Translations under genes and position numbers: made by a program
Notes under the pieces: generated by a model
What the model was told of the DNA's origin: nothing
What the model saw: only the letters and a program-made list of their open reading frames with translations
The model's database searches: none
Part shown: in pieces, positions 682-62,644 of the stretch
Position numbering within the stretch: position 1 is the stretch's first letter
How the letters are laid out: every line of letters begins with the position of its first letter
Assembly: GCA_000405225.1 (NCBI GenBank)
Contig: ASMP01000002.1
Location: 70,073 to 134,072 of the forward strand
Source: Nanoarchaeota archaeon SCGC AAA011-D5
Lineage (GTDB): Archaea; Nanobdellota; Nanobdellia; Pacearchaeales; GW2011-AR1
DNA length: 64,000 bases
Direction: 5' to 3'

Positions 682-1248
682 ATGGAAAAAAGAGGGAGAT
701 TTCTTGCCAGAAATCATAGATTGGCAATTTTTCCAGAGAAAAATCGCAGGGGGCAAATCTATCTCGTTTCTGCCATAATCCTCGCTGTAATAATGATGAG
801 TGTTATCGTGGTTTCAAATTATTCAAAGAAGGACGAATATCTGGATTTAAACAGCCTCAGGGATGAATTGAGGATAGAGAGCGGAAAAATTCTGGATTAT
901 GGAATTAACAACCAGCTTAGCCAGCTGGCAATGAATCAGCTTCTTCAGGACTTCTCTCAGAAATACATAGACACCGAATCACGGGACAAGAATCTTTATT
1001 TTGTTTTTGGGACGCAAAGCAACATCACGCTCAAAGGATACCAGAATACAGCGCATACTGTTTCTCTGGACAGCACAGAAGTCAATTCTTCTTCAGGGGC
1101 ATTCTTAGGAACCATCAGCCCATCTGGAAACAGCGCCACTCTGAATATAGATGAAAACTCTTATATTTTTACTTTAAAAAACGGCGAAAATTTCTTTTTC
1201 GTGATTTCCCGCGAAACCGGAGGAAAGGAATATGTTGTTACAGGATGA
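682..1248 (+). CDS. Archaeal pilin-like protein (class III signal peptide)
   Basis: RRG/QIYLVSAIILAVIMM prepilin-like cleavage site followed by a hydrophobic helix; pilus locus context. Confidence 0.65.
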   Translation: MEKRGRFLARNHRLAIFPEKNRRGQIYLVSAIILAVIMMSVIVVSNYSKKDEYLDLNSLRDELRIESGKILDYGINNQLSQLAMNQLLQDFSQKYIDTESRDKNLYFVFGTQSNITLKGYQNTAHTVSLDSTEVNSSSGAFLGTISPSGNSATLNIDENSYIFTLKNGENFFFVISRETGGKEYVVTG

Positions 1249-1249
1249 A

Positions 1250-3109
1250 ATGATAAAAAATAAGAAAGGAGTGAGCATAATGATCGGTTATGTTCTTCTG
1301 CTAGTCTTCGCGGTGATAATGGGTGTTATAACCTTTGCCTGGCTCAAGTCCTATGTTCCCGCAGAAGCTCTGAATTGCCCCGAGGGCGTCTCAATTTTCA
1401 TTAACGAGGCAACATTCAACGATTCAACATCTGAGCTAAATTTAAGCTTGGTAAACAACGGAAGATTTGATATTGCAGGATATTTCATACATGCATCTGT
1501 CTCTGAACAGGAATTACCGACGATAGATTTGTCCTCTTATCTCAACGAGGGTTTTAGCGGAAAGAAATTAGGAACTTCTGTAATCATTGGGAATGCAGAT
1601 ATACTTTTTGGTCAAGAAGGGAACCTTTTCGAAGCAGGAGACCGGGAAAAGAATATTTTTAACATTCCTCCCGGTATTACTAAAATTCATTCTATCAGGA
1701 TAACTCCTACAAGATTCCAGGAAGAAAATGGCAGGCAAAGGTTCGTGAGTTGTGGCGATGCAAAAGTGCAGCTGCAGCTGGCCACAGCGCCTATAGTATG
1801 CATACCTTCCTGCACCGGAAAGGCCTGTGGAGGCGATGGCTGCGGGGGAAGCTGCGGAAGTTGTAATTCAAGTTTCTTTTGTGATGCTAGTAGCCAGTGT
1901 ATTTCAACAAATTGTGTGCCTGCTGCAAATTCAACACTTTCAGAAATTTGCGGTTCTTTCGTTTGCGGAACAGCTCAGAATGGAACCTGTGGCAATGTAA
2001 GTTGCGGGACATGTACAGGAGGCAATTCATGCAACCAGACATCGGGGCAGTGTGTTTTCATAAGTTGCGTGCCTGCTTCAGATCCAACACTTTCAGGAGT
2101 TTGTGGTTCTTCTGTTTGTGGAACAGCTCAGAATGGAACCTGTGACACTGTAAGTTGCGGGACATGTACAGGAGGCAATTCATGCGACCAGACAACAGGT
2201 CAGTGTATTTCAGCAAATTGTGTGCCTGCTTCAAATCCAACACATTCAGGAGTTTGCGGTTCTTCTGTTTGCGGAACAGCTCAGAATGGAACATGTAGCA
2301 CCGTAAGTTGCGGAACATGTACAGGAGGTGCTTCATGCAACCAGGCAACAGGTCAGTGTGTTGCAGCAAGTTGTGTGCCTGCTTCAAATCCAACACTTTC
2401 AGGAGTTTGTGGTTCTTCTGTTTGCGGAACAGCTCAGAATGGAACATGTAGCACTGTAATTTGCGGGACATGTACAGGATTTCCAATAGTTGCTGCATCT
2501 AAGACATCGTCAAGGTCTAGTAACGCCGCTGACGACGTAATTACAATGCCCACCGGGATTGTGGCGGGTGACTTGCTTCTTGTCATCCACGCCACAGATG
2601 CAGGTGGAAGTGCAACACGAACATGGAGTGGTGGATTTACCGAAATTCTGGACAAGAGCGCAAGCTCGAATATAGGGGTGGCTTGGAAAATTGCGGCAGG
2701 GGGAGACTCCCTTACTGTCACTAAGTCAGCCTCAGAGAGATTCTCAGCCATTGCCCTTAGGATTACTGGAGCTCATGCATCGTCTGCTCCTAAGATTTCT
2801 ACCACTGCGACAGGGGAAAACACTGACCCTAATCCCGATTCTGTTACTGCATCCTGGGGCGCGGAGAACAATCTCTTTATCGCCTTTTATGGGCAAGATA
2901 CAAATATTACTGATACGATAGTTGATGCATGGCCAACGAACTATGACGACAATCAGATTCAAGGTGTTTTTGTTGCCTCTGCTGGTGAACCCAACATGGC
3001 AACCCGGGATTTGGCAGCGGCTACAGATGACCCTGGAACATTTACCATCAATACGTTGATAGGGTGGAGGGGGTGGCGGGCTGGAACAATAGTTGTTAGA
3101 CCAGCATAA
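1250..3109 (+). CDS. Pilin-anchored Cys-rich repeat surface protein/adhesin
   Basis: KKG/VSIMIGYVLLLV archaeal pilin N-terminus, 51-aa Cys-rich repeats, distinct C-terminal domain; start at ATG 1250 preferred (ORF track 1232). Confidence 0.75.
   Translation: MIKNKKGVSIMIGYVLLLVFAVIMGVITFAWLKSYVPAEALNCPEGVSIFINEATFNDSTSELNLSLVNNGRFDIAGYFIHASVSEQELPTIDLSSYLNEGFSGKKLGTSVIIGNADILFGQEGNLFEAGDREKNIFNIPPGITKIHSIRITPTRFQEENGRQRFVSCGDAKVQLQLATAPIVCIPSCTGKACGGDGCGGSCGSCNSSFFCDASSQCISTNCVPAANSTLSEICGSFVCGTAQNGTCGNVSCGTCTGGNSCNQTSGQCVFISCVPASDPTLSGVCGSSVCGTAQNGTCDTVSCGTCTGGNSCDQTTGQCISANCVPASNPTHSGVCGSSVCGTAQNGTCSTVSCGTCTGGASCNQATGQCVAASCVPASNPTLSGVCGSSVCGTAQNGTCSTVICGTCTGFPIVAASKTSSRSSNAADDVITMPTGIVAGDLLLVIHATDAGGSATRTWSGGFTEILDKSASSNIGVAWKIAAGGDSLTVTKSASERFSAIALRITGAHASSAPKISTTATGENTDPNPDSVTASWGAENNLFIAFYGQDTNITDTIVDAWPTNYDDNQIQGVFVASAGEPNMATRDLAAATDDPGTFTINTLIGWRGWRAGTIVVRPA
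1913..2479 (+). repeat. 153-bp (51-aa, 8-Cys) tandem coding repeat, ~3.7 copies
   Basis: Units start at 1913, 2066, 2219, 2372 (CVPAS..CGSSVCGTAQNGTC..VSCGTCTG). Confidence 0.95.
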
Positions 3110-3336: not shown

Positions 3337-4080
3337 TTATTCTTTAGCTGATTTCCATAATATTTCAAATACATTACGATAAGAATCTGCGACGTGTTTG
3401 TTGTCAATTATGGTAACTATTGGTTTATCCGTCCAAATAACAAAAGAAACCTTATCACCATAGATAGTTGTTTCAGTTAAAGGTTCAAATTCGGTGTCGA
3501 AGAATCTGACTTTAATTTCCTTATGATGTATTATTTTTTTCCAATGTTTAAGAGATTTATGGAAAATCATTCGCGCCTTAACGCCAGATTCATGCTGTTT
3601 GGTATGAAGATTTTCCCAGTAAAAGTCAGGAATAATTTTCTCAGATTGGAGAGGGCTTCCAAAAACACAATAGTCTAATTTATTATCTATTATCTCGGAA
3701 TATATTCTCTTAATTCCCGCAACTCCACTAAAAACTGCAGCTGTTTCTTTTAGAATCCTATGTTTTTTTAATAAGACTACCTCTTTAGAGATTTTATAGG
3801 CTAATTCTTTTTGCTTATCGAGCTCTTCTTTTTTCTTTTCAATAAATTCGACTAATGCTGAAGGGTCTTGAATCTGGTATACTCTATGATTTTTTTCTAT
3901 TATTTTGGATATCATTCCTTTGTCACATAATCTTTCAAGAGCTTGGTAAGTGTTAGCTTTGTAGAATCCTGTTTCTTGTAGCAATCCTTGAACATCAGAA
4001 GCTCCAAGTTTTAACAGGGTTAGATATAAAGTCGCCTCTGCTTGAGACAATCCTAATTTCATTAAATCTTCTTTGTCCAT
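3337..4080 (-). CDS. TrmB-family transcriptional regulator
   Basis: LGLSQAEATLYLTLL wHTH plus C-terminal effector domain. Confidence 0.85.
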   Translation of the reverse strand: MDKEDLMKLGLSQAEATLYLTLLKLGASDVQGLLQETGFYKANTYQALERLCDKGMISKIIEKNHRVYQIQDPSALVEFIEKKKEELDKQKELAYKISKEVVLLKKHRILKETAAVFSGVAGIKRIYSEIIDNKLDYCVFGSPLQSEKIIPDFYWENLHTKQHESGVKARMIFHKSLKHWKKIIHHKEIKVRFFDTEFEPLTETTIYGDKVSFVIWTDKPIVTIIDNKHVADSYRNVFEILWKSAKE

Positions 4081-4139
4081 AATAGTAGTATTAATCTAGT
4101 ACTACTCATATATAAATCTGTCTATTTTGAAAGATTGCT

Positions 4140-4655
4140 ATGAAAAAGATAATACAAAAAATTGCAAATGTATATAGGCAAGATGGTAAAACTTTTCTTT
4201 ATCATCTAGCTAGCGTTGGAATTTCAACAATAGCTGGTGCTATAAATGCTGGTTGTTTAGAGAAGTATGGATTTGAACCTGCTTTGAATAGTTCAATAAC
4301 TACCGGGGTTGGAACTGCTAGTTATTGGATACCTTTTATTGGTTTGCTGGCTAGAAATGAGAGGAGCGAAATGAAAGACGAGAATGGGAAGTATATAGCT
4401 AGTAAAATTCGCTCTAAAGCTATTCAGTATGCCTCTTTTGTTGGAATTGGAGAAGTTTTATTTGCAGCAGTTAGAGGATTCACGCAGTACCAAATACAAA
4501 AAAGACTTGAATTGGATGCGACCTCAGCTTCTGCTCTGACAGATTTGACTTGTGCAACTGCCTATGGTGTTTTGGTTCCACCTATTAGACAAATTCTTAG
4601 AAAAAGTGCTAGAGAAAGTAACCTGGAAAAAATAGCTAAGGAGGTTACAACATAA
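4140..4655 (+). CDS. Hypothetical membrane protein
   Basis: Several hydrophobic segments; adjacent to the methyltransferase. Confidence 0.5.
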   Translation: MKKIIQKIANVYRQDGKTFLYHLASVGISTIAGAINAGCLEKYGFEPALNSSITTGVGTASYWIPFIGLLARNERSEMKDENGKYIASKIRSKAIQYASFVGIGEVLFAAVRGFTQYQIQKRLELDATSASALTDLTCATAYGVLVPPIRQILRKSARESNLEKIAKEVTT

Positions 4656-29980: not shown

Positions 29981-30004
29981 TTTATAAATCTTGCTATTTT
30001 GTTA
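29981..30004 (-). promoter_or_regulatory. Shared 24-bp promoter (1 mismatch)
   Basis: TAACAAAATAGCAAGATTTATAAA vs consensus TAACAAAATAGAAAGATTTATAAA. Confidence 0.75.
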
Positions 30005-30063
30005 CTTTTTGAGAGTGAGAACACCTTAAAAAGGTTTATAAATAATCTCTTTATCTGCCGAAT

Positions 30064-30843
30064 ATGGTAAGAAAAATATCTGATAAAAAAACACAATTAA
30101 TGCAAGAATTGTATGATAAAGGTTTAGATGTTGTAGAAATAGCCAGAAGAGTGAATGTTTCTTATAGCACAGCATACGGTTATACAAAATTGAAACAAAG
30201 AATTAATCCGGAAACAGGAAGGAAGTTTGAATCAATAAGTCAATTAAGGGATTACCAAGCGAGACATAGGATTAATCCGGAAACAGGACAGGCGTTTGAA
30301 TCAAGAAGTCAATATGAGGAATATAGAGCGAGACATATGTTTAATCTGGAAACAGGACAGGCGTTTGAATCAAGAAGCCAATATGAGGAATATAGAGCGA
30401 GACATAGGATTAATCCGGAAACAAGAAAGGCGTTTGAATCAAGAAGCCAATTAATGGATTACCAAGCGAGACATAGGATTAATCCGGAAACAGCCCAGGC
30501 GTTTGAATCAAGAAGTCAATATGAGGAATATAGAGCAAGACATAGAATTAATCCAGAAACAGGACAGGCGTTTGAATCAAGAAGTCAATATGAGGAATAT
30601 TTAGCTGAGCAGAGACAAAGAAGGCTAAAAAATAAAAAGCTTAGCAATTTAATAAAAAAGAGATTAAAAAAGCTTAGGAAAAACCAGTCCTGGTTATCCA
30701 GAGAAGTAGATGTTTCAAAAGAAACTGCTTCTATGTATACACATGGAAAAAGTATACCAACTGAAGAAAGATTAGAAAGATTGTTTTCTGCACTTGGTGT
30801 CAAATGCAGAACCTTGGAGGATTTATTAGAGGAAAAACACTAA
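30064..30843 (+). CDS. HTH - 23-aa repeat array - XRE HTH DNA-binding protein
   Basis: N-terminal HTH, six RINPETGxxFESxSQ repeats, C-terminal NQSWLSREVDVSKETASMYTHG XRE motif. Confidence 0.8.
   Translation: MVRKISDKKTQLMQELYDKGLDVVEIARRVNVSYSTAYGYTKLKQRINPETGRKFESISQLRDYQARHRINPETGQAFESRSQYEEYRARHMFNLETGQAFESRSQYEEYRARHRINPETRKAFESRSQLMDYQARHRINPETAQAFESRSQYEEYRARHRINPETGQAFESRSQYEEYLAEQRQRRLKNKKLSNLIKKRLKKLRKNQSWLSREVDVSKETASMYTHGKSIPTEERLERLFSALGVKCRTLEDLLEEKH
30193..30606 (+). repeat. 69-bp coding tandem repeat x6
   Basis: Six units of AGGATTAATCCGGAAACAGGACAGGCGTTTGAATCAAGAAG-type sequence. Confidence 0.95.
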
Positions 30844-37980: not shown

Positions 37981-38073
37981 TTTGCTTCACCATTTTTTAC
38001 TAAATTTAAAGCATACAAGAACTATATAAAATTGATTGTGATTTAGTCCAAATTTTATATAAAAGGTCTTAGC

Positions 38074-38384
38074 AGCTAAGGCCATTCCAAAAGCACAGCT
38101 GTTCTCGTTGTTGCCATGGTTGTTCGAGTTAACATTCAACCTGTTGTTGCCCAAGTTCCTGTTGGAATTCAGACTCGCAACCCAGCTATGTAGCCAGTTT
38201 ATCTCATGAAATTTTTATTTTTCATGTCAGGAATCTTGCCTGCACAGAGCAAAATTTAATTTGCACACCATCGCTTCAAGTTTCGCAAATATTAGATATA
38301 AAAACTACTATTTGTCGCGATTGAATTTTATGACTTAAAATAAACCTGAATAATGCCTTAATAAACTGGCGTGTGGCCTTAGCT
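38074..38384 (-). ncRNA. Putative DGR template RNA (structured 5' domain + TR), bounded by long-range pairing
   Basis: 11-bp IR 38374-38384/38074-38084 encloses TR; nested 10-bp IR 38361-38370/38193-38202; hairpin 38205-38226; no avd ORF. Confidence 0.6.
38087..38183 (-). repeat. DGR template repeat (TR)
   Basis: 97 nt, 30 adenines on minus strand (12 AAY codons in target frame); differs from VR only at adenines. Confidence 0.97.
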
Positions 38385-38447
38385 CAAGCTTTTTTTAAGC
38401 TCTGCTAAGACAAATAAATAAGTAAAAACAGGTTTAAATTTTTTGCG

Positions 38448-38464
38448 AACCAGCTTCGCTGGTT
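38448..38464 (-). other. DGR target-recognition hairpin (7-bp stem, GAA loop)
   Basis: AACCAGC-GAA-GCTGGTT immediately after the target stop codon. Confidence 0.85.
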
Positions 38465-39165
38465 TACTTCAACACCCCAAAAGCACAGCAGTACTCGTCG
38501 CTGCCACGGTCGTACGAGACAACATCCAACCCGTCGTCGCCCAAGTCCCCGTCGGAACCCAGACCCGCAACCCCTGCTTCTGGTGTTTTCAAACTTGATA
38601 AATCTGGAACCCAAATGTGAGCTTTTTTATCTGGGTGTTTTGATGCAAGTTCTGCAAGTTTTTCAGCTCCTTCTTCACCACCAGCCCATGCAACAAAGTA
38701 AGGATGCTTTCCTACTTCTTTCCAGCTAACAGGACCTTGCCTAAGATGTTCAAAAGAAACTTGCGCACGGCTTTCGGCTAATCTTTTTAGCAAACCACCT
38801 CTATCAACAACAGAATTCTCATCAAATTCAGGATTATCTATAAAATGAGCAATTCTTTCTTTTGGAAGGTAAAGAATTCCTGTAAATCCTCTGAAATATC
38901 TATCTTTCATAATCTGATTAACTTCTCTTGCTTGAGGTTCATTGCCACTAAAATATTCATGAACAAAAGAAACTAATTCCGAAGTTGTTGGTTCTCTATA
39001 ACCAGTTGGATTTTCAGAAGAACCTCTTATTCGCCTTAAAAGATTCAGGGAATTTGCAGGGCCATAAAACGGATGCACCGCTGTTAAAATTTTTCCCTTG
39101 TGTGGAAAATCCATTTCTGTTCTTCCAACTCTTATTCTTTGTCTTGTGTCAGATTGAGTTTCCAT
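38464..39165 (-). CDS. DGR variable (target) protein, CLec-like
   Basis: C-terminal VR encodes VAGLGSDGDLGDDGLDVVSYDRGSDEYCCAFG. Confidence 0.92.
   Translation of the reverse strand: METQSDTRQRIRVGRTEMDFPHKGKILTAVHPFYGPANSLNLLRRIRGSSENPTGYREPTTSELVSFVHEYFSGNEPQAREVNQIMKDRYFRGFTGILYLPKERIAHFIDNPEFDENSVVDRGGLLKRLAESRAQVSFEHLRQGPVSWKEVGKHPYFVAWAGGEEGAEKLAELASKHPDKKAHIWVPDLSSLKTPEAGVAGLGSDGDLGDDGLDVVSYDRGSDEYCCAFGVLK
38477..38573 (-). repeat. DGR variable repeat (VR)
   Basis: Aligns to TR at offset 390: 19 mismatches (15 A>G, 4 A>T), none at the 67 non-A positions. Confidence 0.97.
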
Positions 39166-39186: not shown

Positions 39187-39210
39187 TTTATAAATCTTTC
39201 TATTTTGTTA
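39187..39210 (-). promoter_or_regulatory. Shared 24-bp promoter of DGR target
   Basis: TAACAAAATAGAAAGATTTATAAA, identical to 41556-41579 and 46902-46925. Confidence 0.8.
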
Positions 39211-39243
39211 TTCTTTTTAAGAGGTAACAAAAGAGGAGTGATT

Positions 39244-41555: not shown

Positions 41556-41579
41556 TAACAAAATAGAAAGATTTATAAA
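41556..41579 (+). promoter_or_regulatory. Shared 24-bp promoter
   Basis: TAACAAAATAGAAAGATTTATAAA, 21 nt upstream of ATG 41601. Confidence 0.8.
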
Positions 41580-41600
41580 TATTATATTGTTTGGTGAAAA

Positions 41601-41981
41601 ATGGAAAGTTTAGAAGATATTGCTGGTATTGATTGGTCTAAAGCATTGCCCAAAGGCAGAAATCCAAATGAGACAAGAAGGATGGTATTATACGAAATAA
41701 GAAGAGGAATCAAAGGGAGATGGGGATTTTTAAGGAACCTCACCAAAACAGAAGATGAAGTTATTCAAATTATTATGTCAACAAGAATAACAAATGATAC
41801 TGAAGCTGCTAAAAAAGTTATAAGATATTTAGAGAACACTAATTATGTTCATTATAGTGATGGTTCTGGTGATATCTCTCTTTGTAATGATGGATATTAT
41901 AATTTAAAAAGAGTTCAGGATAGAAAGGAAAATATAAGATTTAAAATCCTGGATCTTCATTTGCCTACCCATTGGGACTGA
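41601..41981 (+). CDS. Hypothetical protein
   Basis: 126-aa ORF with own promoter, inserted between pop5 and psmA. Confidence 0.6.
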   Translation: MESLEDIAGIDWSKALPKGRNPNETRRMVLYEIRRGIKGRWGFLRNLTKTEDEVIQIIMSTRITNDTEAAKKVIRYLENTNYVHYSDGSGDISLCNDGYYNLKRVQDRKENIRFKILDLHLPTHWD

Positions 41982-46901: not shown

Positions 46902-46925
46902 TAACAAAATAGAAAGATTTATAAA
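46902..46925 (+). promoter_or_regulatory. Shared 24-bp promoter
   Basis: TAACAAAATAGAAAGATTTATAAA, 21 nt upstream of ATG 46947. Confidence 0.8.
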
Positions 46926-46946
46926 GTTGGAATTTCTGGGAAAAAT

Positions 46947-47189
46947 ATGGGAAAAACAGATGTAAGACCAAAATTAACGGATTTAATTCCTTTTTACGGA
47001 TGGACCGATTATGTTGGGAGAACTACATTTGGTACTTGGGAAGAAGTTCCAATAAGAAATCAAATAAAAAGAGGGGTTATCATATTAGCTCAGGTAGCCT
47101 ATAATAGCTATATTGGAGCAGAGATTTTAAATATGTTAGAAGGAAAACCTTCTTTCACATACAAACTTCTTGAAAAGATTCTTAATTAA
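46947..47189 (+). CDS. Hypothetical protein
   Basis: 80-aa ORF with own promoter between rpoK and eno. Confidence 0.6.
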   Translation: MGKTDVRPKLTDLIPFYGWTDYVGRTTFGTWEEVPIRNQIKRGVIILAQVAYNSYIGAEILNMLEGKPSFTYKLLEKILN

Positions 47190-51174: not shown

Positions 51175-51540
51175 GGGAAGAATTTTTTATATGAAATTAT
51201 AAAGTAGTAACAAAAGAGAAAGATTTAAATAGTAGAAGATTAGTAAAAATTTATGGAAAAAAATTTGGTAGATCTTGTTATAATTGGTAATGCTTTTGTT
51301 TTAGGTGGTGCTTTAAGTCAGTTAATGCTTTATGGTCTACACAAAGCAAGACTTTCAGAAAGAGAATTTACAACTGGTAAAGAAGAAACAAGAAAGTATG
51401 TAGAAAGAGTTCAAGAACTAAATAAATCTTCTCTAAGAAGAATAGTTTTTTATGGTGCGAATCTAGCAAATAGAAAATATTTAGAAAGTATTAAATAACA
51501 ATTCATATTCAACGTAAGTTGATTTCATAATTAATTCTTC
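51175..51540 (+). mobile_element. Inverted-repeat-bounded gene cassette, copy 1 (intergenic)
   Basis: Left end 51175-51197 identical to 58628-58650; right end 51503-51540 is 37/38 identical to 59102-59139. Confidence 0.8.
51253..51498 (+). CDS. Cassette cargo: hypothetical protein with N-terminal hydrophobic helix
   Basis: 81 aa; preceded by shared-promoter variant 51208-51231. Confidence 0.6.
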   Translation: MEKNLVDLVIIGNAFVLGGALSQLMLYGLHKARLSEREFTTGKEETRKYVERVQELNKSSLRRIVFYGANLANRKYLESIK

Positions 51541-51576
51541 TTGATTATTTTTATCAAACCTTGAACCACAACCAGC

Positions 51577-57273: not shown

Positions 57274-58627
57274 CGTGGACGTGAAAACATGGTGAGGGAA
57301 GAAGTTCCTTTATCAGTTTGAGAAAATAACTCACAATTATTTTCAATGAGATAAGCAACGAATGGTTTTCCTGATTTAGAAGGACATACTATTACCGACG
57401 CTGTTAGATGGATGGCTTGGTTTTGGTTTCGATGAAAGACGTGGCAAGCTGCGATAAGCTTGGGGGAGCCGCATGCAAGCTTTGATCCCAAGATTTCTGA
57501 ATCGTGCACCCATGTTTACATGGTCTGCAAGAATACGCCGGGAATTGAAACATCTTAGTACCGGCAGGAAGAGAAAATAAATTAATGATTCCCCTATTAG
57601 CAGAGAGCGAAAAGGGAAGAGGGCAAACCGAATCTCCTCTTGAAAGGGAGGCAGAGATGTGGTGAGCGTAAATTCCTAAGTCGTCGAGTCAAACTTCTCT
57701 GGAATGAGAGGCCTTGGAGAGTGATAGCCTCGTAGACGAAGATGATATGGAGTTGCTTTAAAGAGTAGGGCTCCCTGGATTGGGGGTCTGAATACGGCAG
57801 GATTAACTGCCAACCCTAAATAAAACCAAAGTCCGATAGCGCACTAGTACCGCGAGGGAATGCTGAAAAGAACCCGTAACAGGGAGTGAAAAGATCTGAA
57901 ATCTAACAGTTACAGTTTGTTACTGCCCTTTCCTCTTCGGAGGATTGGGGTTGTAACGTACGTTTCGAAGAACGAGCCAGGGAGTTTATTTGTGTGGCGA
58001 GGCTAATCATCTATAATGAGTAACCGAAGCGAAAGCAAGTTGGAAACAGCGAGAGTCACACGAATCAGACCTGAAGCCAGGTGATCTAATCATGGGCAAG
58101 GTGAAGTCTTCCGAAAGGAGGATGGAGGCCTGAACCAGTGTTGTGTACATGCACTTGGATGATCTGTGATTAGGGGTGAAAAGCCTATCTAACCTGGTGA
58201 TGGCTGGTTCCTGCTGAAATATGCCTCCGTATAGTCTTGTCTAGCTTGTCGACGGTGTAAAGTACGGATAAAATTTGCAGAGGCTAATGCCTACGGAATT
58301 TTTTCCAACTCAGAATCTGTCGACTGCATAGGACAAGAAACAGGGTGTGTATGTAAGATACACCTCCGAGACCCAAAAAAGGGAGACCAGAGTTAAGGTC
58401 CCTAAATTCATGCTAAGTGCGACAAAAGGTGTCCTGGACCTGAGACACTAGGGATGTAAGCTTAGAAGCAGCTATCATTTAAAGAAAGCGTAACAGCTCA
58501 CCTATCGAGGCCCAAGGCCCTGAAAATGGACGGGGCTAAGCATGGTACCGATACTCTGGAGGCACTCGGTTTAAAATAGTATAACAAAAATCAAAGATTT
58601 TTGTGCGTCTGCCAAGATGGTAGGCGC

Positions 58628-59140
58628 GGGAAGAATTTTTTATATGAAATAGGAAAAGAAAAGGTTTTTAAACTTTAAAGTAACAACAAAATTATGAATT
58701 TGAAGACGCTCCTTACAACAAAAAAAGATGAAAGAATAATGATGGATTTTGCTAGAGGAAAGATTAATTATTTAGAGGATGGTTTTCTTCAAAAAAATTT
58801 CCCAGACTTGTTTAGAAATCTTAAAAGTTATCGCGGTAGATGGGATGAGTTTGGAGAAGAACTTGAAAGAAGGTGTATAGAAAGAACAAGAGATATTTCA
58901 CAAAGAAAGGTAGATTATGGTGCAATACTTCATAATGTTGGAGTTGCTATTCCATTTTATTTTTTTACTGCACTCGTTAATATTGTTGGTGGTCTTGGTG
59001 GGGGGATTCATAAAACCCAAGAGATGCTTGATGAGGATTTAAGACCATATATGAAACCAACTTATAAATTGGCAAATTCTAATTAAAATATAATTCACAA
59101 ATCATATTCAACGAAAGTTGATTTCATAATTAATTCTTCC
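58628..59140 (+). mobile_element. Inverted-repeat-bounded gene cassette, copy 2 (inside 23S)
   Basis: Ends match 51175-51197 and 51503-51540; left and right ends pair 9 bp + 8 bp. Confidence 0.8.
58694..59086 (+). CDS. Cassette cargo: hypothetical 130-aa protein with hydrophobic segment
   Basis: Intact ORF with upstream TTTTAAA box; no LAGLIDADG/HNH/GIY-YIG motif seen. Confidence 0.7.
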   Translation: MNLKTLLTTKKDERIMMDFARGKINYLEDGFLQKNFPDLFRNLKSYRGRWDEFGEELERRCIERTRDISQRKVDYGAILHNVGVAIPFYFFTALVNIVGGLGGGIHKTQEMLDEDLRPYMKPTYKLANSN

Positions 59141-59838
59141 TGTACTATACAGAGTGTTCTGGTAAGCAGGCGTCTTTTCTGCGTCGAAGCTTCTTCGAGA
59201 GAAGGGGTGGAGCGGAAAGGAATGAGAATCCTGGTGGTAGTAGGATGTGATTTCTCTGAGAAAGAGAAACGTCGAAAGGGTAAGGTTTCCTTGGCAATAT
59301 ATTTTAGCCAAGGGTTAGTCAGCGCCTAAGTTGTGCCCTAACAGAGTACGACGATGGACAACAGGTTAATATTCCTGTACTGATCAAATTTTACATTTTA
59401 GGAAAGCTTTCGGATAAGCAAGCACCCGGAAGGGTGTTCTGGGAAAGAGACGGGGGGAGCGTAATGCAAAGATCTCTGTGAATTTTTCAGACAAAATTTC
59501 TGACTCCGAGAGCCAGTGAAAAGTTCTAGAGTTAAACGAGTTTGGTTAGCTGTACCCACAACCGACACTGGTGCCCTAGCTGAGAAGGCTAAGACGTGAA
59601 AGGAAAAACCAACTAAGGGAATTCGGCATATTGGTCCTGTAGCTTCGGCTGAAGGGATGTCTATCTTTGTGCTTCGGTTCGCAAGAATTTTAGGTGCATC
59701 GGTAGATTACAATAACAAAGATGGCCCGACTGTTTACCAAAAACGTAGCCAAGTGCTAATCTGTAAAGACTTGTATACTTGGTGAGCCCTGCCCAGTGGC
59801 GGTGTCTGAAACCCCTTTTCAAGGGGGCTAATGCCCGT

Positions 59839-59875
<37 letters not shown>

Positions 59876-60519
59876 GTAATGCCTTGTCGTCTGAATGGCG
59901 ACGTGCATGAATGGGTTAACGTGGTTGTCACTGTCCCTAGTTGGGACCTTCTGAACACACTTCGTGGTGAAAAGGCCACGGACGCCTAGTGGGAAGCGGA
60001 GACCTTGTGGAACTTTACTGCAACTTGTTGTTGTAATTTTAAGTGGAATGCATAGAATAGGTAGGAGCGTCGAGTCCCTCTTTTCGGAGGGGGAGGAGCG
60101 AAAGTGTAATACTACCCATTTTTATTAGAATTGCTTACCGTTTACGGAACAGCAGCAGGCGGGCAGTTTGGCTGGGGCGGCGCCCTGTCGAAAAGATATC
60201 GATAGGACCCAAAGTCAAGCTCATCCGGCTTGGAAACCCGGAGTTGAGTGCGAGGGCAAAAGCTTGACTGACTGTATTCTGAAAAGCAAGGAATGCAGGG
60301 ACGAAAGTCTGGCCTAGTGAACCCACGTGCTTTTTTAATAGAAGCCGTGTCTGATAGAAAAGTTACCCCAAGGATAACAGGCTTGTCGCACCCGATAGTC
60401 CATATTGACGGTGCGGTTTGGTACATCGCTGTCGGCTCTACCTATCCTGCGCGTGCAGAAGCGTGCAAGGGTGTCGGAGTTCACGCATTAAAAGGTATCG
60501 TTAGCTGGGTTAAGAACGT

Positions 60520-60842
60520 CAAAAATAGACCCAATTAACAGATAAGTACTGAACAAAGAACTTGACAAGCAAAAAATAAATAATTAACGCGGCGTTGCGC
60601 ACGAGTAATTGTGCGAAAAATAAAATCAGCTCATATCGGTGGAGGCTTGATGTTTAAATTGATTAAACTGTCAGCATCATGTTAATACCGAGGGAAGTCG
60701 TAATTGACCCCGTAGAGACTTAGAGTTTAAAACTCTGGAGTTCTGCTGTTAAAAGCAGAGCTAAGACGCTGATCTCCGTTGTGCAAACAACGGATGAAGG
60801 TATAGTCCATACAACACAAAATCATAAGTGTTGAGTAATATA
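60520..60842 (+). mobile_element. Group I intron (IA-like) at 23S position 2593, no homing endonuclease
   Basis: Exons GAACGT|CGCGAGACAG; IGS 60588-60596; P3 60625-60630/60768-60773; R GAGACT 60715-60720; S AAGGTATAGTCC 60797-60808; P8 with GCAA loop. Confidence 0.92.
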
Positions 60843-61099
60843 CGCGAGACAGTTTGTATGATATCTACTAGGTGTGTTGTTGTCTGAGTGGAACGAACTT
60901 GTAGTACGAGAGGAACCAGGTTCGGGAGCCTCTGGTGAGCAGTTGTCATCTGGCAGGCTGCATAGCTACGCTCCATACGGATAAGAGCTGAATGCATCTA
61001 AGCTCGAAGCCGCCCGCAAAACGAGACAACTAAGGCCGTCATAGAAGATGACGTTGATAGAGTTGGGGTGTAAGATTCAAGCTTTTGGTGAGGCGAGAA

Positions 61100-61217
61100 T
61101 TTCAGCCCACAACTACTAAAAGCCTCAATTTGAATTTTCTTTATAAGAAGATTCTATAATATGTTATGTCCACACAATTCTTTTTCAGAAAACCATTCGT
61201 TGTTTGTTGAGTTTTTT
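61100..61217 (+). repeat. 23S 3'-end repeat copy 1 (118 bp identical to 61891-62008)
   Basis: Exact direct repeat; first 39 bp also at 62571-62609. Confidence 0.95.
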
Positions 61218-61221
61218 GATT

Positions 61222-61542
61222 TTAATATCCAAATCTTCTTTCATAAGTCTTATGATCCATCCATTCAAGAATAATGGAGAAAACCAAGAGATTTTTTCCT
61301 TCTACACTATAAATCAATCTCCAAGCATCAGGCAAGTTATATTTCCATAAATTTTTAACATTATATTTTTTTAGGTATTCTTTTGGAATTAGCTTTTTAG
61401 GAATTTGTATTCCGCAAAAAGCATTATTTTCTATATCTTCAAAAGCTCTAGAAATGAGTCCATACATACTAGTGTCTTCATCTTCTAGTTTATGAAATGC
61501 ATTTTTTATTTTTTCACTGACAAACTGGATCTTACTTCTCAT
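61222..61542 (-). CDS. RelE/ParE-family toxin
   Basis: NLWKYNLPDAWRLIY...WMDHKTYERRFGY. Confidence 0.8.
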   Translation of the reverse strand: MRSKIQFVSEKIKNAFHKLEDEDTSMYGLISRAFEDIENNAFCGIQIPKKLIPKEYLKKYNVKNLWKYNLPDAWRLIYSVEGKNLLVFSIILEWMDHKTYERRFGY

Positions 61543-61831: not shown

Positions 61832-61890
61832 GGTTATATCAATTGATATACCTTTATAAATTTTTGGATTTTCTTATTTAGTTTAGGCTG

Positions 61891-62008
61891 TTTCAGCCCA
61901 CAACTACTAAAAGCCTCAATTTGAATTTTCTTTATAAGAAGATTCTATAATATGTTATGTCCACACAATTCTTTTTCAGAAAACCATTCGTTGTTTGTTG
62001 AGTTTTTT
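61891..62008 (+). repeat. 23S 3'-end repeat copy 2
   Basis: Identical to 61100-61217. Confidence 0.95.
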
Positions 62009-62047
62009 TATGATAAATCTTTTATACTTATATTTCCTTGTCTGTTC

Positions 62048-62359
62048 ATGAAGGAGTATTCTCTTTTATTTGATAAAGAATTTGTTAAAGCATACAGAAA
62101 ACTGGACAAATCGCTTCAGATAGAGGGAGACAAAAAACTTAAAAGATTAAAAATAAATCCAAGAGAGATTGGGAAACCTTTAAGATTTTTTCCAAATTTA
62201 TATGAATTGCATTTGAGGATGTACAGAATTTATTATGTGGTTGAGGAAGCAGAGATAAAGGTTCTCCTTCTGTCTATTTTGCACAAAGATGAGCAGGATA
62301 GATTTCTAAGAAGTCTAACAAAGGAAAGGATAAAGAGAATTATCGAAGAGAATTTCTAA
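62048..62359 (+). CDS. RelE/ParE-family toxin
   Basis: FDKEFVKAYRKL...NPREIGKPL...YELHLRMYRIYY; ATG 62048 preferred (ORF track 61952). Confidence 0.8.
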   Translation: MKEYSLLFDKEFVKAYRKLDKSLQIEGDKKLKRLKINPREIGKPLRFFPNLYELHLRMYRIYYVVEEAEIKVLLLSILHKDEQDRFLRSLTKERIKRIIEENF

Positions 62360-62507: not shown

Positions 62508-62570
62508 ATTTATCCTAAATGCCCAAAGTTTTTAAACTTTTACCCTGTTTTTAGGTTTCTTCGGCGACTG

Positions 62571-62644
62571 TTTCAGCCCACAACTACTAAAAGCCTCAAT
62601 TTGAATTTTATGTCTGGAAGAATCAGGAAAACCATTCGTTGCTT
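62571..62644 (+). repeat. 23S 3'-end repeat copy 3 (probable original) with perfect processing-stem strand
   Basis: 39-bp core, plus 62621-62644 is the exact reverse complement of pre-23S 57353-57376. Confidence 0.9.

Follow-up and report, generated by a model that had tools for sequence, protein, structure and literature searches.

A template repeat (TR) and a variable repeat (VR) that differ only at adenines are a hallmark of a diversity-generating retroelement (DGR). The DGR RNA of phage BPP-1 runs from the 3' end of avd through TR into Sp (Rfam RT-10), and in the phage DGR ribonucleoprotein (RNP) a template:primer duplex, a 2-nt linker and a stop duplex lie on one strand, ahead of a thumb ring that is single-stranded and of a long stem, interrupted by two interior loops, that binds the reverse transcriptase (RT) (bioRxiv 10.1101/2023.10.23.563531). 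Absence of avd from 26% of DGR cassettes makes the gene common rather than universal (PMC5758913). Retrons are ordered a1, branching nucleotide, msr, msd, a2 and RT (PMC7736814). For nanoarchaeal DGRs an IMH of TGGGGT against an IMH* of TGGAAT, a hairpin after VR, four cassettes per genome and, in a nanoarchaeon, an incomplete cassette devoid of RT have all been described (PMC4372165). Separately, the RNA motif RT-16 was published as ending at the first TR bases, its function left open beyond being "found nearby to RT genes", and among the motifs of that study only RT-10 was tied to a DGR (PMC5737381); a sarcin-ricin-like loop has been remarked on (PMC13085918).

Here we analysed a stretch of 64 kb (the window) in which, to our minds, these threads meet. 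Our best explanation, to which we assign a probability of about 70% taken as a whole, is that the region described below encodes the template RNA of a DPANN-type DGR without avd. The DGR components proper are as follows.

38464..39165, minus strand: DGR target (variable protein) gene, an ORF of 233 aa with VR at its C-terminus
38473..38573, minus strand: VR, an ungapped TR match at an offset of 390 nt, ending in a fixed IMH-like GGGGUG
38449..38463, minus strand: target-site hairpin ACCAGC-GAA-GCUGGU directly after the target stop codon
38083..38183, minus strand: TR, an ungapped match to VR
38088-38084, minus strand: IMH*-like GGAAU in TR

VR makes up the C-terminal ~35 codons of the ORF at 38464-39165. 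The target protein has no Pfam or NCBIfam match, but DPANN-type metagenomes contain 62 homologues about 230 aa in length, of which the nearest is 73% identical, and a search for population variants gave none closer than that; the gene is syntenic with the target genes of a related locus, L013. Comparing TR (38183-38083) with VR (38573-38473), we find every mismatch at a TR adenine, 19 of them within 38183-38087 plus two fixed A>G changes of the GAAU motif, and zero over the roughly 65-75 non-adenine positions compared, which argues against old decay. As for GAAU itself, the motif is invariant in 35 related loci, and family VRs have GGG-U where TR has GAA-U in 27-28 of 28 cases. So its adenines are ruled out as mutagenised template positions and instead represent a fixed IMH/IMH* difference, seen in the window as GGGGUG (VR) against GGAAUG (TR). 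Hairpins with a GAA/GRA triloop come after VR in most related loci.

Between target gene and TR lies a structured RNA, whose parts are listed in 5' to 3' order together with the elements that flank TR.

38185..38410, minus strand: RT-16 RNA (RF03019), covariance-model match
38404..38411, minus strand: outer terminal helix A0, 5' strand GUCUUAGC, from the minimum free energy (MFE) fold
38386..38402, minus strand: small hairpin GAGCUU-AAAAA-AAGCUU between A0 and A, from the MFE fold
38374..38384, minus strand: helix A, 5' strand AGCUAAGGCCA, ending in the invariant A of the CYA-CAC-GC motif
38371..38373, minus strand: linker CAC, 3 nt, between helices A and B
38360..38370, minus strand: helix B, 5' strand GCCAGUUUAUU, the long-range helix of Rfam RT-16
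38334-38322, minus strand: conserved single strand GUCAUAAAAUUCA in the RT-16 core
about 38320-38266, minus strand: long stem with AGUA/GAA (sarcin-ricin-like) internal loops
38262-38204, minus strand: insertion beyond the Rfam model, holding a 7-bp hairpin (38226-38205)
38193..38203, minus strand: helix B, 3' strand GAUAAACUGGC, adjoining TR through a conserved UACA
38192-38085, minus strand: segment looped out between the 3' strands of B and A
38074..38084, minus strand: helix A, 3' strand UGGCCUUAGCU, starting at the last two bases of TR/VR homology
38066..38073, minus strand: outer helix A0, 3' strand GCUAAGAC, from the MFE fold

Read on the minus strand, the features listed in an earlier note on this DNA are all where it had put them. 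Its ~170-nt noncoding domain is indeed present and closed by pairing, yet not new, being the known Rfam family RT-16 (RF03019), which the window matches over the full model (positions 1-158 of 158) with 105.2 bits against a gathering score of 50 and within the span of RT-linked relatives (55-113 bits). Likewise, the inner pairing it proposed (38370-38361 with 38202-38193) is real but already stands in Rfam as the closing helix of RT-16. Species-representative genomes hold 59 RT-16 instances, nearly all in DPANN and each with an AAC-rich TR directly after it. Scanning viral contigs with the core pattern gave no viral RT-16; of two matches, the one that was read (L120) proved to be a chance match. 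Two smaller elements of the earlier note, the 7-bp hairpin CATGAAA/TTTCATG at 38226-38205 and an 11-bp inverted repeat made of A and T only, TATATAAAATT (38061-38051) with AATTTTATATA (38033-38023), do exist on the minus strand. Their conservation as RNA parts is not supported, and other loci carry inserts of differing sequence at the place of 38262-38204.

The unit sits, as the earlier note had it, where avd sits in the Bordetella phage cassette, namely between target gene and TR, and this position could be taken to mean that the domain is a decayed avd gene. Yet a full-length covariance-model match identifies a structured RNA, no ORF longer than 25 aa lies wholly inside the RT-16 domain (38185-38410), and ORFs overlapping 38060-38463 mostly pass through VR or TR. 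Moreover, the Avd family gave no match among the window ORFs or among 36 small ORFs beside 24 related cassettes, in a search whose sensitivity is limited because avd is poorly conserved. The terminal arms in turn resemble a1/a2 of retrons, which might suggest that the locus is a retron; this is at odds with neighbouring RTs in related loci that carry LGNLTSQ and score far under the retron family cut-off, and with a TR/VR pair differing only at adenines. Given the ORF check, the Avd search and the RT motif and family scores, we reject both readings, which have next to no likelihood left. The decay of an avd gene, which the earlier note had named as the finding that would speak against it, is thus not borne out.

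The outer long-range pairing is an 11-bp helix, AGCTAAGGCCA (38384-38374) being the exact reverse complement of TGGCCTTAGCT (38084-38074), and the exact 11-mer AGCTAAGGCCA has just two sites in the 64-kb window, both strands counted, which are the two arms. Helix A thus placed falls outside the Rfam RT-16 model. For the inner pairing, GCCAGTTTAT (38370-38361) is the exact reverse complement of ATAAACTGGC (38202-38193), and helix B reaches 11 bp (38370-38360 with 38203-38193) through a terminal U:G wobble, 38360:38203, which counts as a 1-mismatch match in a pattern search. The linker between both helices has its C and A invariant in 35 loci (columns 15-17 of our alignment A1), and an extra pair from its third base (column 17) to G59 of GAAU was rejected as it finds no covariation support. 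Further out, the hairpin at 38386..38402 matches the apical part of Rfam's P1, and terminal 5'/3' pairing like A0 occurs in most of the 35 loci with differing sequences, for instance GTCTTGGCA/TGCCAAGAC, TGTCCTCGC/GCGAGGACA and TCCCAGCCGTGC/GCATGGCTGGGG. Sequence, thermodynamic prediction and comparison of loci together tell us that the 5' end of the RNA pairs with the sequence directly 3' of TR (A0 and A), that helix B closes the RT-16 core with its 3' strand adjoining the 5' end of TR, and that both template ends are held by one continuous strand (A, CAC, B). With A0 and A joining the RNA 5' end to the 3' flank of TR and B closing the core, TR is looped out from a three-way junction, in line with the proposal that the pairing closes the noncoding domain and loops out the template.

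That this nested long-range pairing is real and under selection follows from compensatory changes in related loci, which we find for both helices. Alignment A1 was constructed for 35 DPANN loci by using motifs to anchor three segments of fixed length; the rule for anchoring was adjusted upon inspection, three earlier rules for the 3' arm having each misplaced 3-8 of the 35 loci, and the final rule uses motifs only. Covariation across DPANN TR flanks, which the earlier note had set as a test, is found for helix A: 11 of 14 aligned pairs changed on both sides, although the sequences are related and cell counts therefore overstate independent events. In fixed register the inner seven pairs are 80-100% paired, none of 500 shuffles matched the observed covariation score or percentage paired, and sliding the partner cuts pairing from 83% to 24-47%. 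A complementarity search comparing self with non-self arms, in which motif anchoring was not used, agrees with the fixed-register test. Helix B is paired in 93.8% of cells, with 10 of 11 pairs changed on both sides. Consistent with this, the MFE fold of the window RNA (38413-38060) has a free energy of -105.1 kcal/mol (z = -4.7 against 100 shuffles) and contains both helices plus the outer one, and when each of the 35 loci was folded on its own, with flanks set irrespective of complementarity, helix A appeared in 26 of the 35 MFE folds.

The curated Rfam structure pairs the same arm of helix A locally, and one may therefore ask whether this P1 hairpin is the functional fold, with the complementarity after TR being incidental (e.g. 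a terminator or duplicated hairpin) or the off state of a switch. Indeed, by a criterion of at least 6 bp, 24 of 35 loci allow the helix-A strand to pair with the strand at the very 5' end, and in the window the post-TR segment could form its own 7-bp hairpin followed by UUUU. Nonetheless, P1 does not include the CYA:URG part of helix A, where covariation is perfect, the Y:R pair being UA in 22 and CG in 13 of the 35 loci; the arm of the GAUGGACUA subgroup is outside the local hairpin but pairs with the segment after TR nevertheless; in most loci the post-TR segment is unable to form a local hairpin; and the long-range helices prevail in the single-sequence folds counted above. So we consider P1 as the sole functional fold improbable. 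Since the alternative pairing is available in most loci, helix A may form only in some states.

Two further elements lie outside the paired arms.

38444-38431, minus strand: BRE/TATA-like element AAAAAA-TTTAAA-CC (AAAAAATTTAAACC)
38061..38064, minus strand: oligo-T run directly after the terminal stem, a possible archaeal terminator or RNA 3' end

The start of TTTAAA precedes the first base-paired nucleotide of the RNA by 27 nt. When 30 loci are aligned by the outer helix (5' strand), T prevails from -28 to -26 and A from -24 to -22 and from -33 to -31, with TATA-like hexamers peaking at -30 to -24; hence, the TATA-like element singled out by the earlier note is an archaeal TATA box conserved in position. 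At the other end, about 20 nt separate TR from the T-run in the window, and T-rich runs come after the 3' arm in most loci. With a conserved TATA box and a T-run after the 3' arm, the unit can be a self-contained RNA, and A0, the TATA box at about -27 and the 3' oligo-T mark out a predicted transcript of ~350 nt.

These features also bear on whether the arms could be terminal inverted repeats acting at the DNA level, as in a mobile or recombining TR cassette. Inverted repeats do flank the unit, which occurs with and without RT and in different genomic contexts, and one related copy (L051) is truncated beside an integrase-like ORF. But G:U is the commonest pair at one helix A position (18 of 35 loci), and abundant G:U, which would read as C/A mismatches on the other strand, fits RNA-level pairing on the minus strand only. 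In addition, the arms keep a fixed register with the motifs CYACACGC and GAAU of the RNA, the placement of the conserved promoter suits a transcription start at the 5' arm, and synteny with L013 speaks for a stable chromosomal position. We therefore regard DNA-level repeats as very unlikely and keep to a folded template RNA.

Where the window departs from its relatives is the RT. Neither a motif scan nor tblastn with 15 family RTs found an RT gene in the 64-kb window, nor was there one in about 6.5 kb beyond its left edge (Logan contigs); the [LIV]GxxxSQ motif of DGR-clade RTs is absent from the window, while relatives carry LGNLTSQ and YVDD. The RT adjacency to which RT-16 owes its name is thus missing here yet present in about 40 of ~59 related loci, where a DGR-type gene (RVT_1 with both motifs) begins directly after the 3' arm, its start 115-140 nt after that of TR. 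Of 25 loci that the TR 3' end retrieved in a metagenome scan, 8 are true relatives, and all 8 have RT in cis, 35-46 nt downstream of the motif that starts at TTTTGG at the TR 3' end; the exact 24-mer of the A-CAC-B junction had no match in the metagenome collection. Our findings therefore do not support the earlier idea that the fold is specifically a device for a trans-acting RT, as RT is encoded in cis in those ~40 loci and in 8 of 8 closest relatives.

Two options are left for this copy: it relies on an RT gene located elsewhere in the genome, or it is a cassette that was orphaned recently. According to the latter explanation, the RT gene was deleted and diversification ended, the fold being intact because the loss is recent, and with no RT in the window and cis RTs in its closest relatives the copy may be inactive. 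Loss is also what one would expect from the syntenic relative L013, in which the interval from TR to mre11, 85 nt long in the window, holds RT and a methyltransferase. In L048, a relative that is RT-less, TR and VR have 6 mismatches at non-adenine positions, in keeping with decay, and an RT-less nanoarchaeal cassette sets a precedent (PMC4372165). Against a relic, the window lacks any non-adenine mismatch, its three helices are perfectly paired, its Rfam score is top-tier and its promoter intact. RT-less modules in at least four other genomes (four other species) keep all helices and have 0-3 non-adenine mismatches, a pattern that suggests selection on units without RT. Furthermore, several cassettes with near-identical RT-16 RNAs are possible per DPANN genome, such as L023 and L090 in one MAG or the four per genome described before (PMC4372165). 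Taken together, we see the relic as rather unlikely, albeit a serious contender, and lean slightly towards putative service of this copy by an RT in trans.

Analogy to retrons and to the Bordetella phage DGR RNP suggests how a template RNA of this kind might work. The promoter (38444-38431) would drive a ~350-nt RNA from about 38411 to about 38061 on the minus strand, its 5' part being the RT-16 domain and its 3' part TR. Helix A, including the IMH*-like GAAU-URG edge, may present the TR 3' end to RT as a template:primer-type duplex, with cDNA synthesis possibly primed in cis from a junction nucleotide, either the invariant A (38374) or CA of the linker, and helix B could act as the stop at the TR 5' end. 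The RT-16 core, i.e. the 13-nt conserved single strand and then the long stem with two internal loops, would be a scaffold for RT binding that works without Avd. Adenine-mutagenised cDNA would eventually replace VR (38573-38473) in the adjoining target gene. A wider and tentative proposal, which we think possible rather than probable, is that RT-16-type cassettes form a distinct DGR class with all of an Sp-like RNA placed 5' of the template in retron order, circularly permuted relative to the Bordetella phage DGR RNA, where Avd is dispensable and RT-less modules are serviced in trans; such servicing of RNA, TR and target modules would follow from the RNA being a self-contained transcription unit with a terminal stem of its own to close it.

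For a large DPANN group, our findings offer a concrete, testable answer to how DGR RTs find and prime their template without avd: a defined RNA of ~250-350 nt with two helices that hold the template ends and few invariant junction nucleotides. The RT-less copies raise the question of DGR RTs serving several RNAs in trans and, if this is true, DPANN archaea would have a diversification network of "one RT, several template RNAs". Engineers of DGR- or retron-based targeted mutagenesis could also be interested in a template RNA that is compact, protein-light and modular at its ends.

With Rfam RT-16 the window shares the whole-model match, the long-range inner helix, the conserved core GUCAUAAAAU and the AGUA/GAA loops. 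What we add to the published motif are helices A and A0, the looped-out TR, the promoter and the link to DPANN DGRs, so that an orphan Rfam motif gains a role. The nanoarchaeal DUSEL4 cassettes have the same order of target, TR and RT and the same GRA-triloop hairpin after VR, come as several per genome and include one without an RT ORF, like the window (PMC4372165); the SCGC AAA011-G17 cassette of that study is our locus L020. A structured RNA upstream of TR or pairing of IMH* with RNA is not described there, and our data now account for the nanoarchaeal IMH* by assigning it to one strand of a helix.

Compared to BPP-1, a biochemically studied system set here against an RNA known by sequence, predicted fold and covariation, the strand order is the same: a stem-loop, a strand that pairs with IMH*, a linker of 2-3 nt and a strand pairing just 5' of TR, followed by a single strand and a stem with two interior loops, TR being looped out between the duplexes. 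The difference is one of circular permutation, as the pairing strand lies 3' of TR in BPP-1, with a structured spacer directly downstream, but 5' of TR in the window RNA, whose structured domain is upstream. Consequently, the proposed stop-side duplex is local here while the proposed primer-side duplex spans the whole RNA. BPP-1 has avd, for which we found no counterpart in the window cassette, and RT-10 gave no match at E <= 1, RT-16 and RT-10 being without detectable sequence or covariance-model similarity. The survey by Handa et al., which took in DGRs with avd and five archaeal genomes, reached no further than 40 nt before and 100 nt after TR (bioRxiv 10.1101/2023.10.23.563531), a span that would miss helix A.

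As to retrons, no description of a retron-like template-RNA layout for DGRs was found in the literature searched. The a1/a2 comparison made in the earlier note is apt in topology, in that the RT-16 core and TR lie between the strands of A0 and A as they would between retron arms (definition in PMC7736814) and the order is the same, with a 5' arm, a junction, non-templating stem-loops, the template by the 3' arm and, in relatives, RT downstream. In contrast to retron RTs, those of the family are of the DGR type (LGNLTSQ) and score 50 bits with the retron model against a cut-off of 235; in place of the conserved branching G the junction has C-A-C (C-A invariant); and a TR that has a VR partner, with changes specific to adenines, serves as template, a conserved msd hairpin being absent. 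The RNA layouts of DGRs and retrons may thus be linked through a simple permutation.

The window is a segment of archaeal chromosome (G+C 37.6%) whose genes include 16S and 23S rRNA, proteasome subunits, FttA, RNase J, SBDS and Mre11/Rad50. When its minus-strand sequence is read, all items listed in the earlier note (a TATA-like box, two long-range complements, a hairpin and an AT repeat) are found where the note places them, and both long-range complements are perfect. The nested pairing described there is confirmed, and its structural interpretation is supported - as well as extended - by an Rfam match, relatives, covariation and folding. To our minds, the system is known but its architecture here is a new variation: the element is a diversity-generating retroelement (DGR) template RNA of retron-like permuted order and without Avd. 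Its parts are as follows.

38464-39165, minus strand: target-gene ORF, 233 aa, ending in the variable repeat (VR)
38573-38473, minus strand: VR, ungapped match to the template repeat (TR)
38444-38431, minus strand: A/T-rich, TATA-like box
38411-38404 (GUCUUAGC) with 38073-38066 (GCUAAGAC), minus strand: terminal helix A0, the extreme 5' strand paired with bases past the 3' strand of helix A
38384-38374 with 38084-38074, minus strand: helix A, the outer pairing
38370-38360 with 38203-38193, minus strand: helix B, the inner pairing of the earlier note and the long-range helix of the RT-16 model
38226-38205, minus strand: 7-bp hairpin within 38262-38204, an insertion relative to the Rfam RT-16 model
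38183-38083, minus strand: TR, ungapped match to the VR
38061-38051 with 38033-38023, minus strand: 11-bp AT-only inverted repeat past the predicted RNA 3' end, between the DGR RNA and mre11 (start 37980)

No family match was found for the target ORF. TR and VR mismatch at TR adenines without exception, and this VR is the sole one for the TR in the 64-kb window.

The noncoding domain, as proposed, is a structured RNA yet not a new one: Rfam's RT-16 motif (RF03019) matches 38410-38185 over the full model (105.2 bits; gathering score 50), though the model covers only part of the fold. It ends at the first bases of the TR and pairs the 5' arm of helix A locally, as the 3' half of a hairpin (P1). 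RT-1 to RT-19 were described merely as motifs near reverse transcriptase (RT) genes, of which just RT-10, corresponding to the Sp region of phage BPP-1, was linked to a DGR, while a DGR role was speculated for others (Weinberg et al. 2017, PMC5737381); in the literature searched, we found no later functional work on RT-16. A 17-base core pattern, run against species-representative genomes, picked out 119 loci. A profile search retained 59 of these as genuine RT-16 instances, and almost all of them belong to MAGs of Woesearchaeota, Pacearchaeota, Nanoarchaeota and Micrarchaeota; Rfam confirmed 17 of the 17 submitted. An AAC-rich TR starts a few bases past the 3' strand of helix B in every instance and, at loci with a VR in the same 8-kb block, this differs from the TR only at adenines.

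The outer pairing is borne out by several approaches across 35 loci. At each locus, the 18 nt that end with CYAC of CYACACGC were matched to their closest complement within 330 nt past helix B. Downstream sequence was long enough at 34 loci, and at about 29 of these the partner lay 82-120 nt downstream, directly after the TR; as a control, a locus's own arm usually outscored those of the other 34. A fixed-register count made no use of complementarity: its anchors were the conserved CYACACGC for the 5' arm and, for the 3' arm, GAAU where the TR ends. In the underlying gapless alignment - a constructed one, whose anchor rule was refined after inspection and whose sequences are related, so that counts are not independent events - 11 of 14 aligned pairs show changes on both sides, and pairing reaches 80-100% in the seven closest to the junction. 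Immediately beyond P1, 22 loci have a U:A pair and the other 13 have C:G, with zero exceptions, and at another pair G:U is the most frequent state (18/35), which fits RNA pairing on the minus strand rather than a DNA inverted repeat. Shifting the partner by 1-3 columns lowers pairing from 83% to 24-47%. Of 500 shuffles, none attains the covariation score of the real alignment or its share of paired cells, and one attains its number of pairs changing on both sides. Helix B is 93.8% paired in the same count, as expected from Rfam. With each locus folded alone between fixed flanks, the minimum-energy structure includes helix A at 26 and helix B at 29 of the 35 loci; the window's fold combines A0, a small hairpin inserted between A0 and A, helix A itself, a CAC linker and B (-105.1 kcal/mol, z = -4.7). 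Strand A can alternatively pair with the extreme 5' strand, as in P1, in many loci including the window, and we speculate that P1 might form first, then be exchanged for A0 and A upon transcription of the 3' arm.

The RNA's probable ends are indicated by A0, an equivalent of which, differing in sequence, occurs in most of the 35 loci and is followed by a T-run. When 30 loci are aligned on the first A0 base, positions -33 to -31 are A-rich, -28 to -26 are T and -24 to -22 are A, a signal of the archaeal BRE/TATA type; the window's TTTAAA begins at -27. The suggested TATA-like box therefore holds in a conserved position, from which transcription would start at the terminal stem. Judged by sequence, the simplest reading would be a self-contained RNA of about 350 nt in the window and 250-390 nt in relatives. 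The other two proposed elements are both present, but the hairpin sits in an insert foreign to the model, at a site where other loci carry inserts differing in sequence and length, and the AT-only repeat lies outside the RNA. The latter includes TTTATATA, which precedes the mre11 start by about 45 nt, and is probably a promoter (mre11 TATA box) or terminator element of the neighbouring gene rather than part of the DGR RNA.

Promoter-like boxes (AAAGATTTATAAATA) recur upstream of several genes in the window (29981-30023 / 39187-39229, 41556-41607 / 46902-46953) and are usable as a TATA consensus of the source genome itself. Other repeats were seen as well. The 23S rRNA match (57384-61139) spans 3756 nt for a 2987-nt model, i.e. 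an insertion of about 770 nt, which holds an ORF (58694-59086, 130 aa, no family match) and is tied by a 93-nt repeat (59050-59142 / 51451-51543) to a site 7.6 kb upstream; it may be a mobile rRNA intron. Directly past the 23S 3' end lie two to three copies of a 47-126-nt repeat (61092-61225, 61883-62016, 62563-62609) with a ParE-like toxin ORF (61952-62359) between copies. In-frame tandem repeats occur at 30123-30674 (69-nt units, at least 6 copies, inside the HTH-domain protein gene 30064-30843) and at 1895-2479 (153-nt units, inside ORF 1232-3109).

Nanoarchaeal DGRs, including a genome represented among our loci (L020), carry TGGGGT at the VR end versus TGGAAT at the TR end (the IMH and IMH* motifs), and a GRA-triloop hairpin after the VR (Paul et al. 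2015, PMC4372165). Among 28 VRs of our loci, 27-28 carry G in place of the two GAAU adenines, and an adenine immediately 5' of the motif is unchanged in 6 of 6, which makes these positions a fixed discriminator rather than randomised sites. Helix A begins at the U of GAAU and its complementary continuation is absent from the VR, so VR transcripts are unable to form it; by analogy, IMH* would gain a structural role like that of phage TR117-129. An extra pair across the junction found no covariation support.

About 40 loci have an RT gene directly after the 3' arm, its start lying 115-140 nt past that of the TR. Neither a motif scan nor tblastn with 15 family RTs found one in the 64-kb window, where only 85 nt separate the 3' arm from mre11. 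A syntenic relative (L013) has RNase J, a small ORF, targets, RT-16/TR, then RT and methyltransferase, then Mre11 and Rad50; since RT is also present in all eight closest metagenome relatives, it was probably lost from the window locus. Several features argue against long-standing decay: TR and VR have zero non-adenine mismatches, pairing in the helices is perfect, the Rfam score is top-tier and the promoter is intact. RT-less modules with adenine-only VR differences exist in at least four other species, and DPANN genomes can carry several cassettes. An RT encoded elsewhere in the source genome may use this RNA, as the trans-RT proposal of the earlier note would have it.

Eight RT-16/TR units have no RT within their 8-kb block: L042, L081, L048, L025 and L050, which form one subgroup and keep an adjacent VR (0-6 non-adenine mismatches), and L066, L117 and L108. 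Their cores and that of the window measure 136-185 nt versus the usual 85-100 nt. The methyltransferase gene of L013, small and MTS-family, directly follows RT (oriented 4115-4627; locus 3374-3886, minus strand) and is missing from the window along with it. At L051 (Micrarchaeales MAG JBOGSA01, contig 4, oriented ~60-780), an RT-16 core with intact helix B is followed by a TR that ends after about 25 nt, with an integrase-like ORF on the opposite strand in its place; the same MAG holds a complete cassette (L080).

Cassettes of relatives run target(s) - RT-16 - TR - RT. Their RTs are RVT_1 proteins with LGNLTSQ and YVDD, closest to group II intron RTs at scores under that family's cut-off, as expected of DGR RTs. 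Neither the window's 131-aa ORF nor any of 36 small ORFs lying up to 2.5 kb from 24 cassettes gave an Avd-family match, which fits "architecture A" of Wu et al., for which an Avd-independent mechanism was proposed.

In the phage DGR RNA (Handa et al., bioRxiv 10.1101/2023.10.23.563531), the Sp strand presents an Avd-binding stem-loop, then Sp47-56, which pairs with TR117-129 to give the template:primer duplex, with primer A56 facing U118. A linker of two bases leads to Sp59-70, whose partner is the stretch of avd immediately 5' of TR ("cPRT Stop"); next come a short element, 13 unpaired nt called the "thumb ring", and a long stem that binds RT and has two interior loops. Their duplex survey, made on DGRs with avd plus five archaeal genomes, reached from 40 nt upstream to 100 nt downstream of TR; helix A, with its 5' strand 100-230 nt upstream, would escape such a design. 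Like the Bordetella phage RNA, a single RT-16 strand offers a hairpin, strand A paired with the TR 3' edge, a linker (three bases, C-A invariant) and strand B paired directly 5' of TR; beyond a short stem come GUCAUAAAAUUCA, which is conserved and single-stranded, and a long stem interrupted by AGUA/GAA internal loops. RT-10 has no match in the window even at E <= 1, and the likeness is one of analogy, not homology. Unlike in phage, where it lies 3' of TR, the RT-16 strand sits 5' of it - a circular permutation whose order resembles that of a retron: a1 - junction - msr - msd - a2 - RT.
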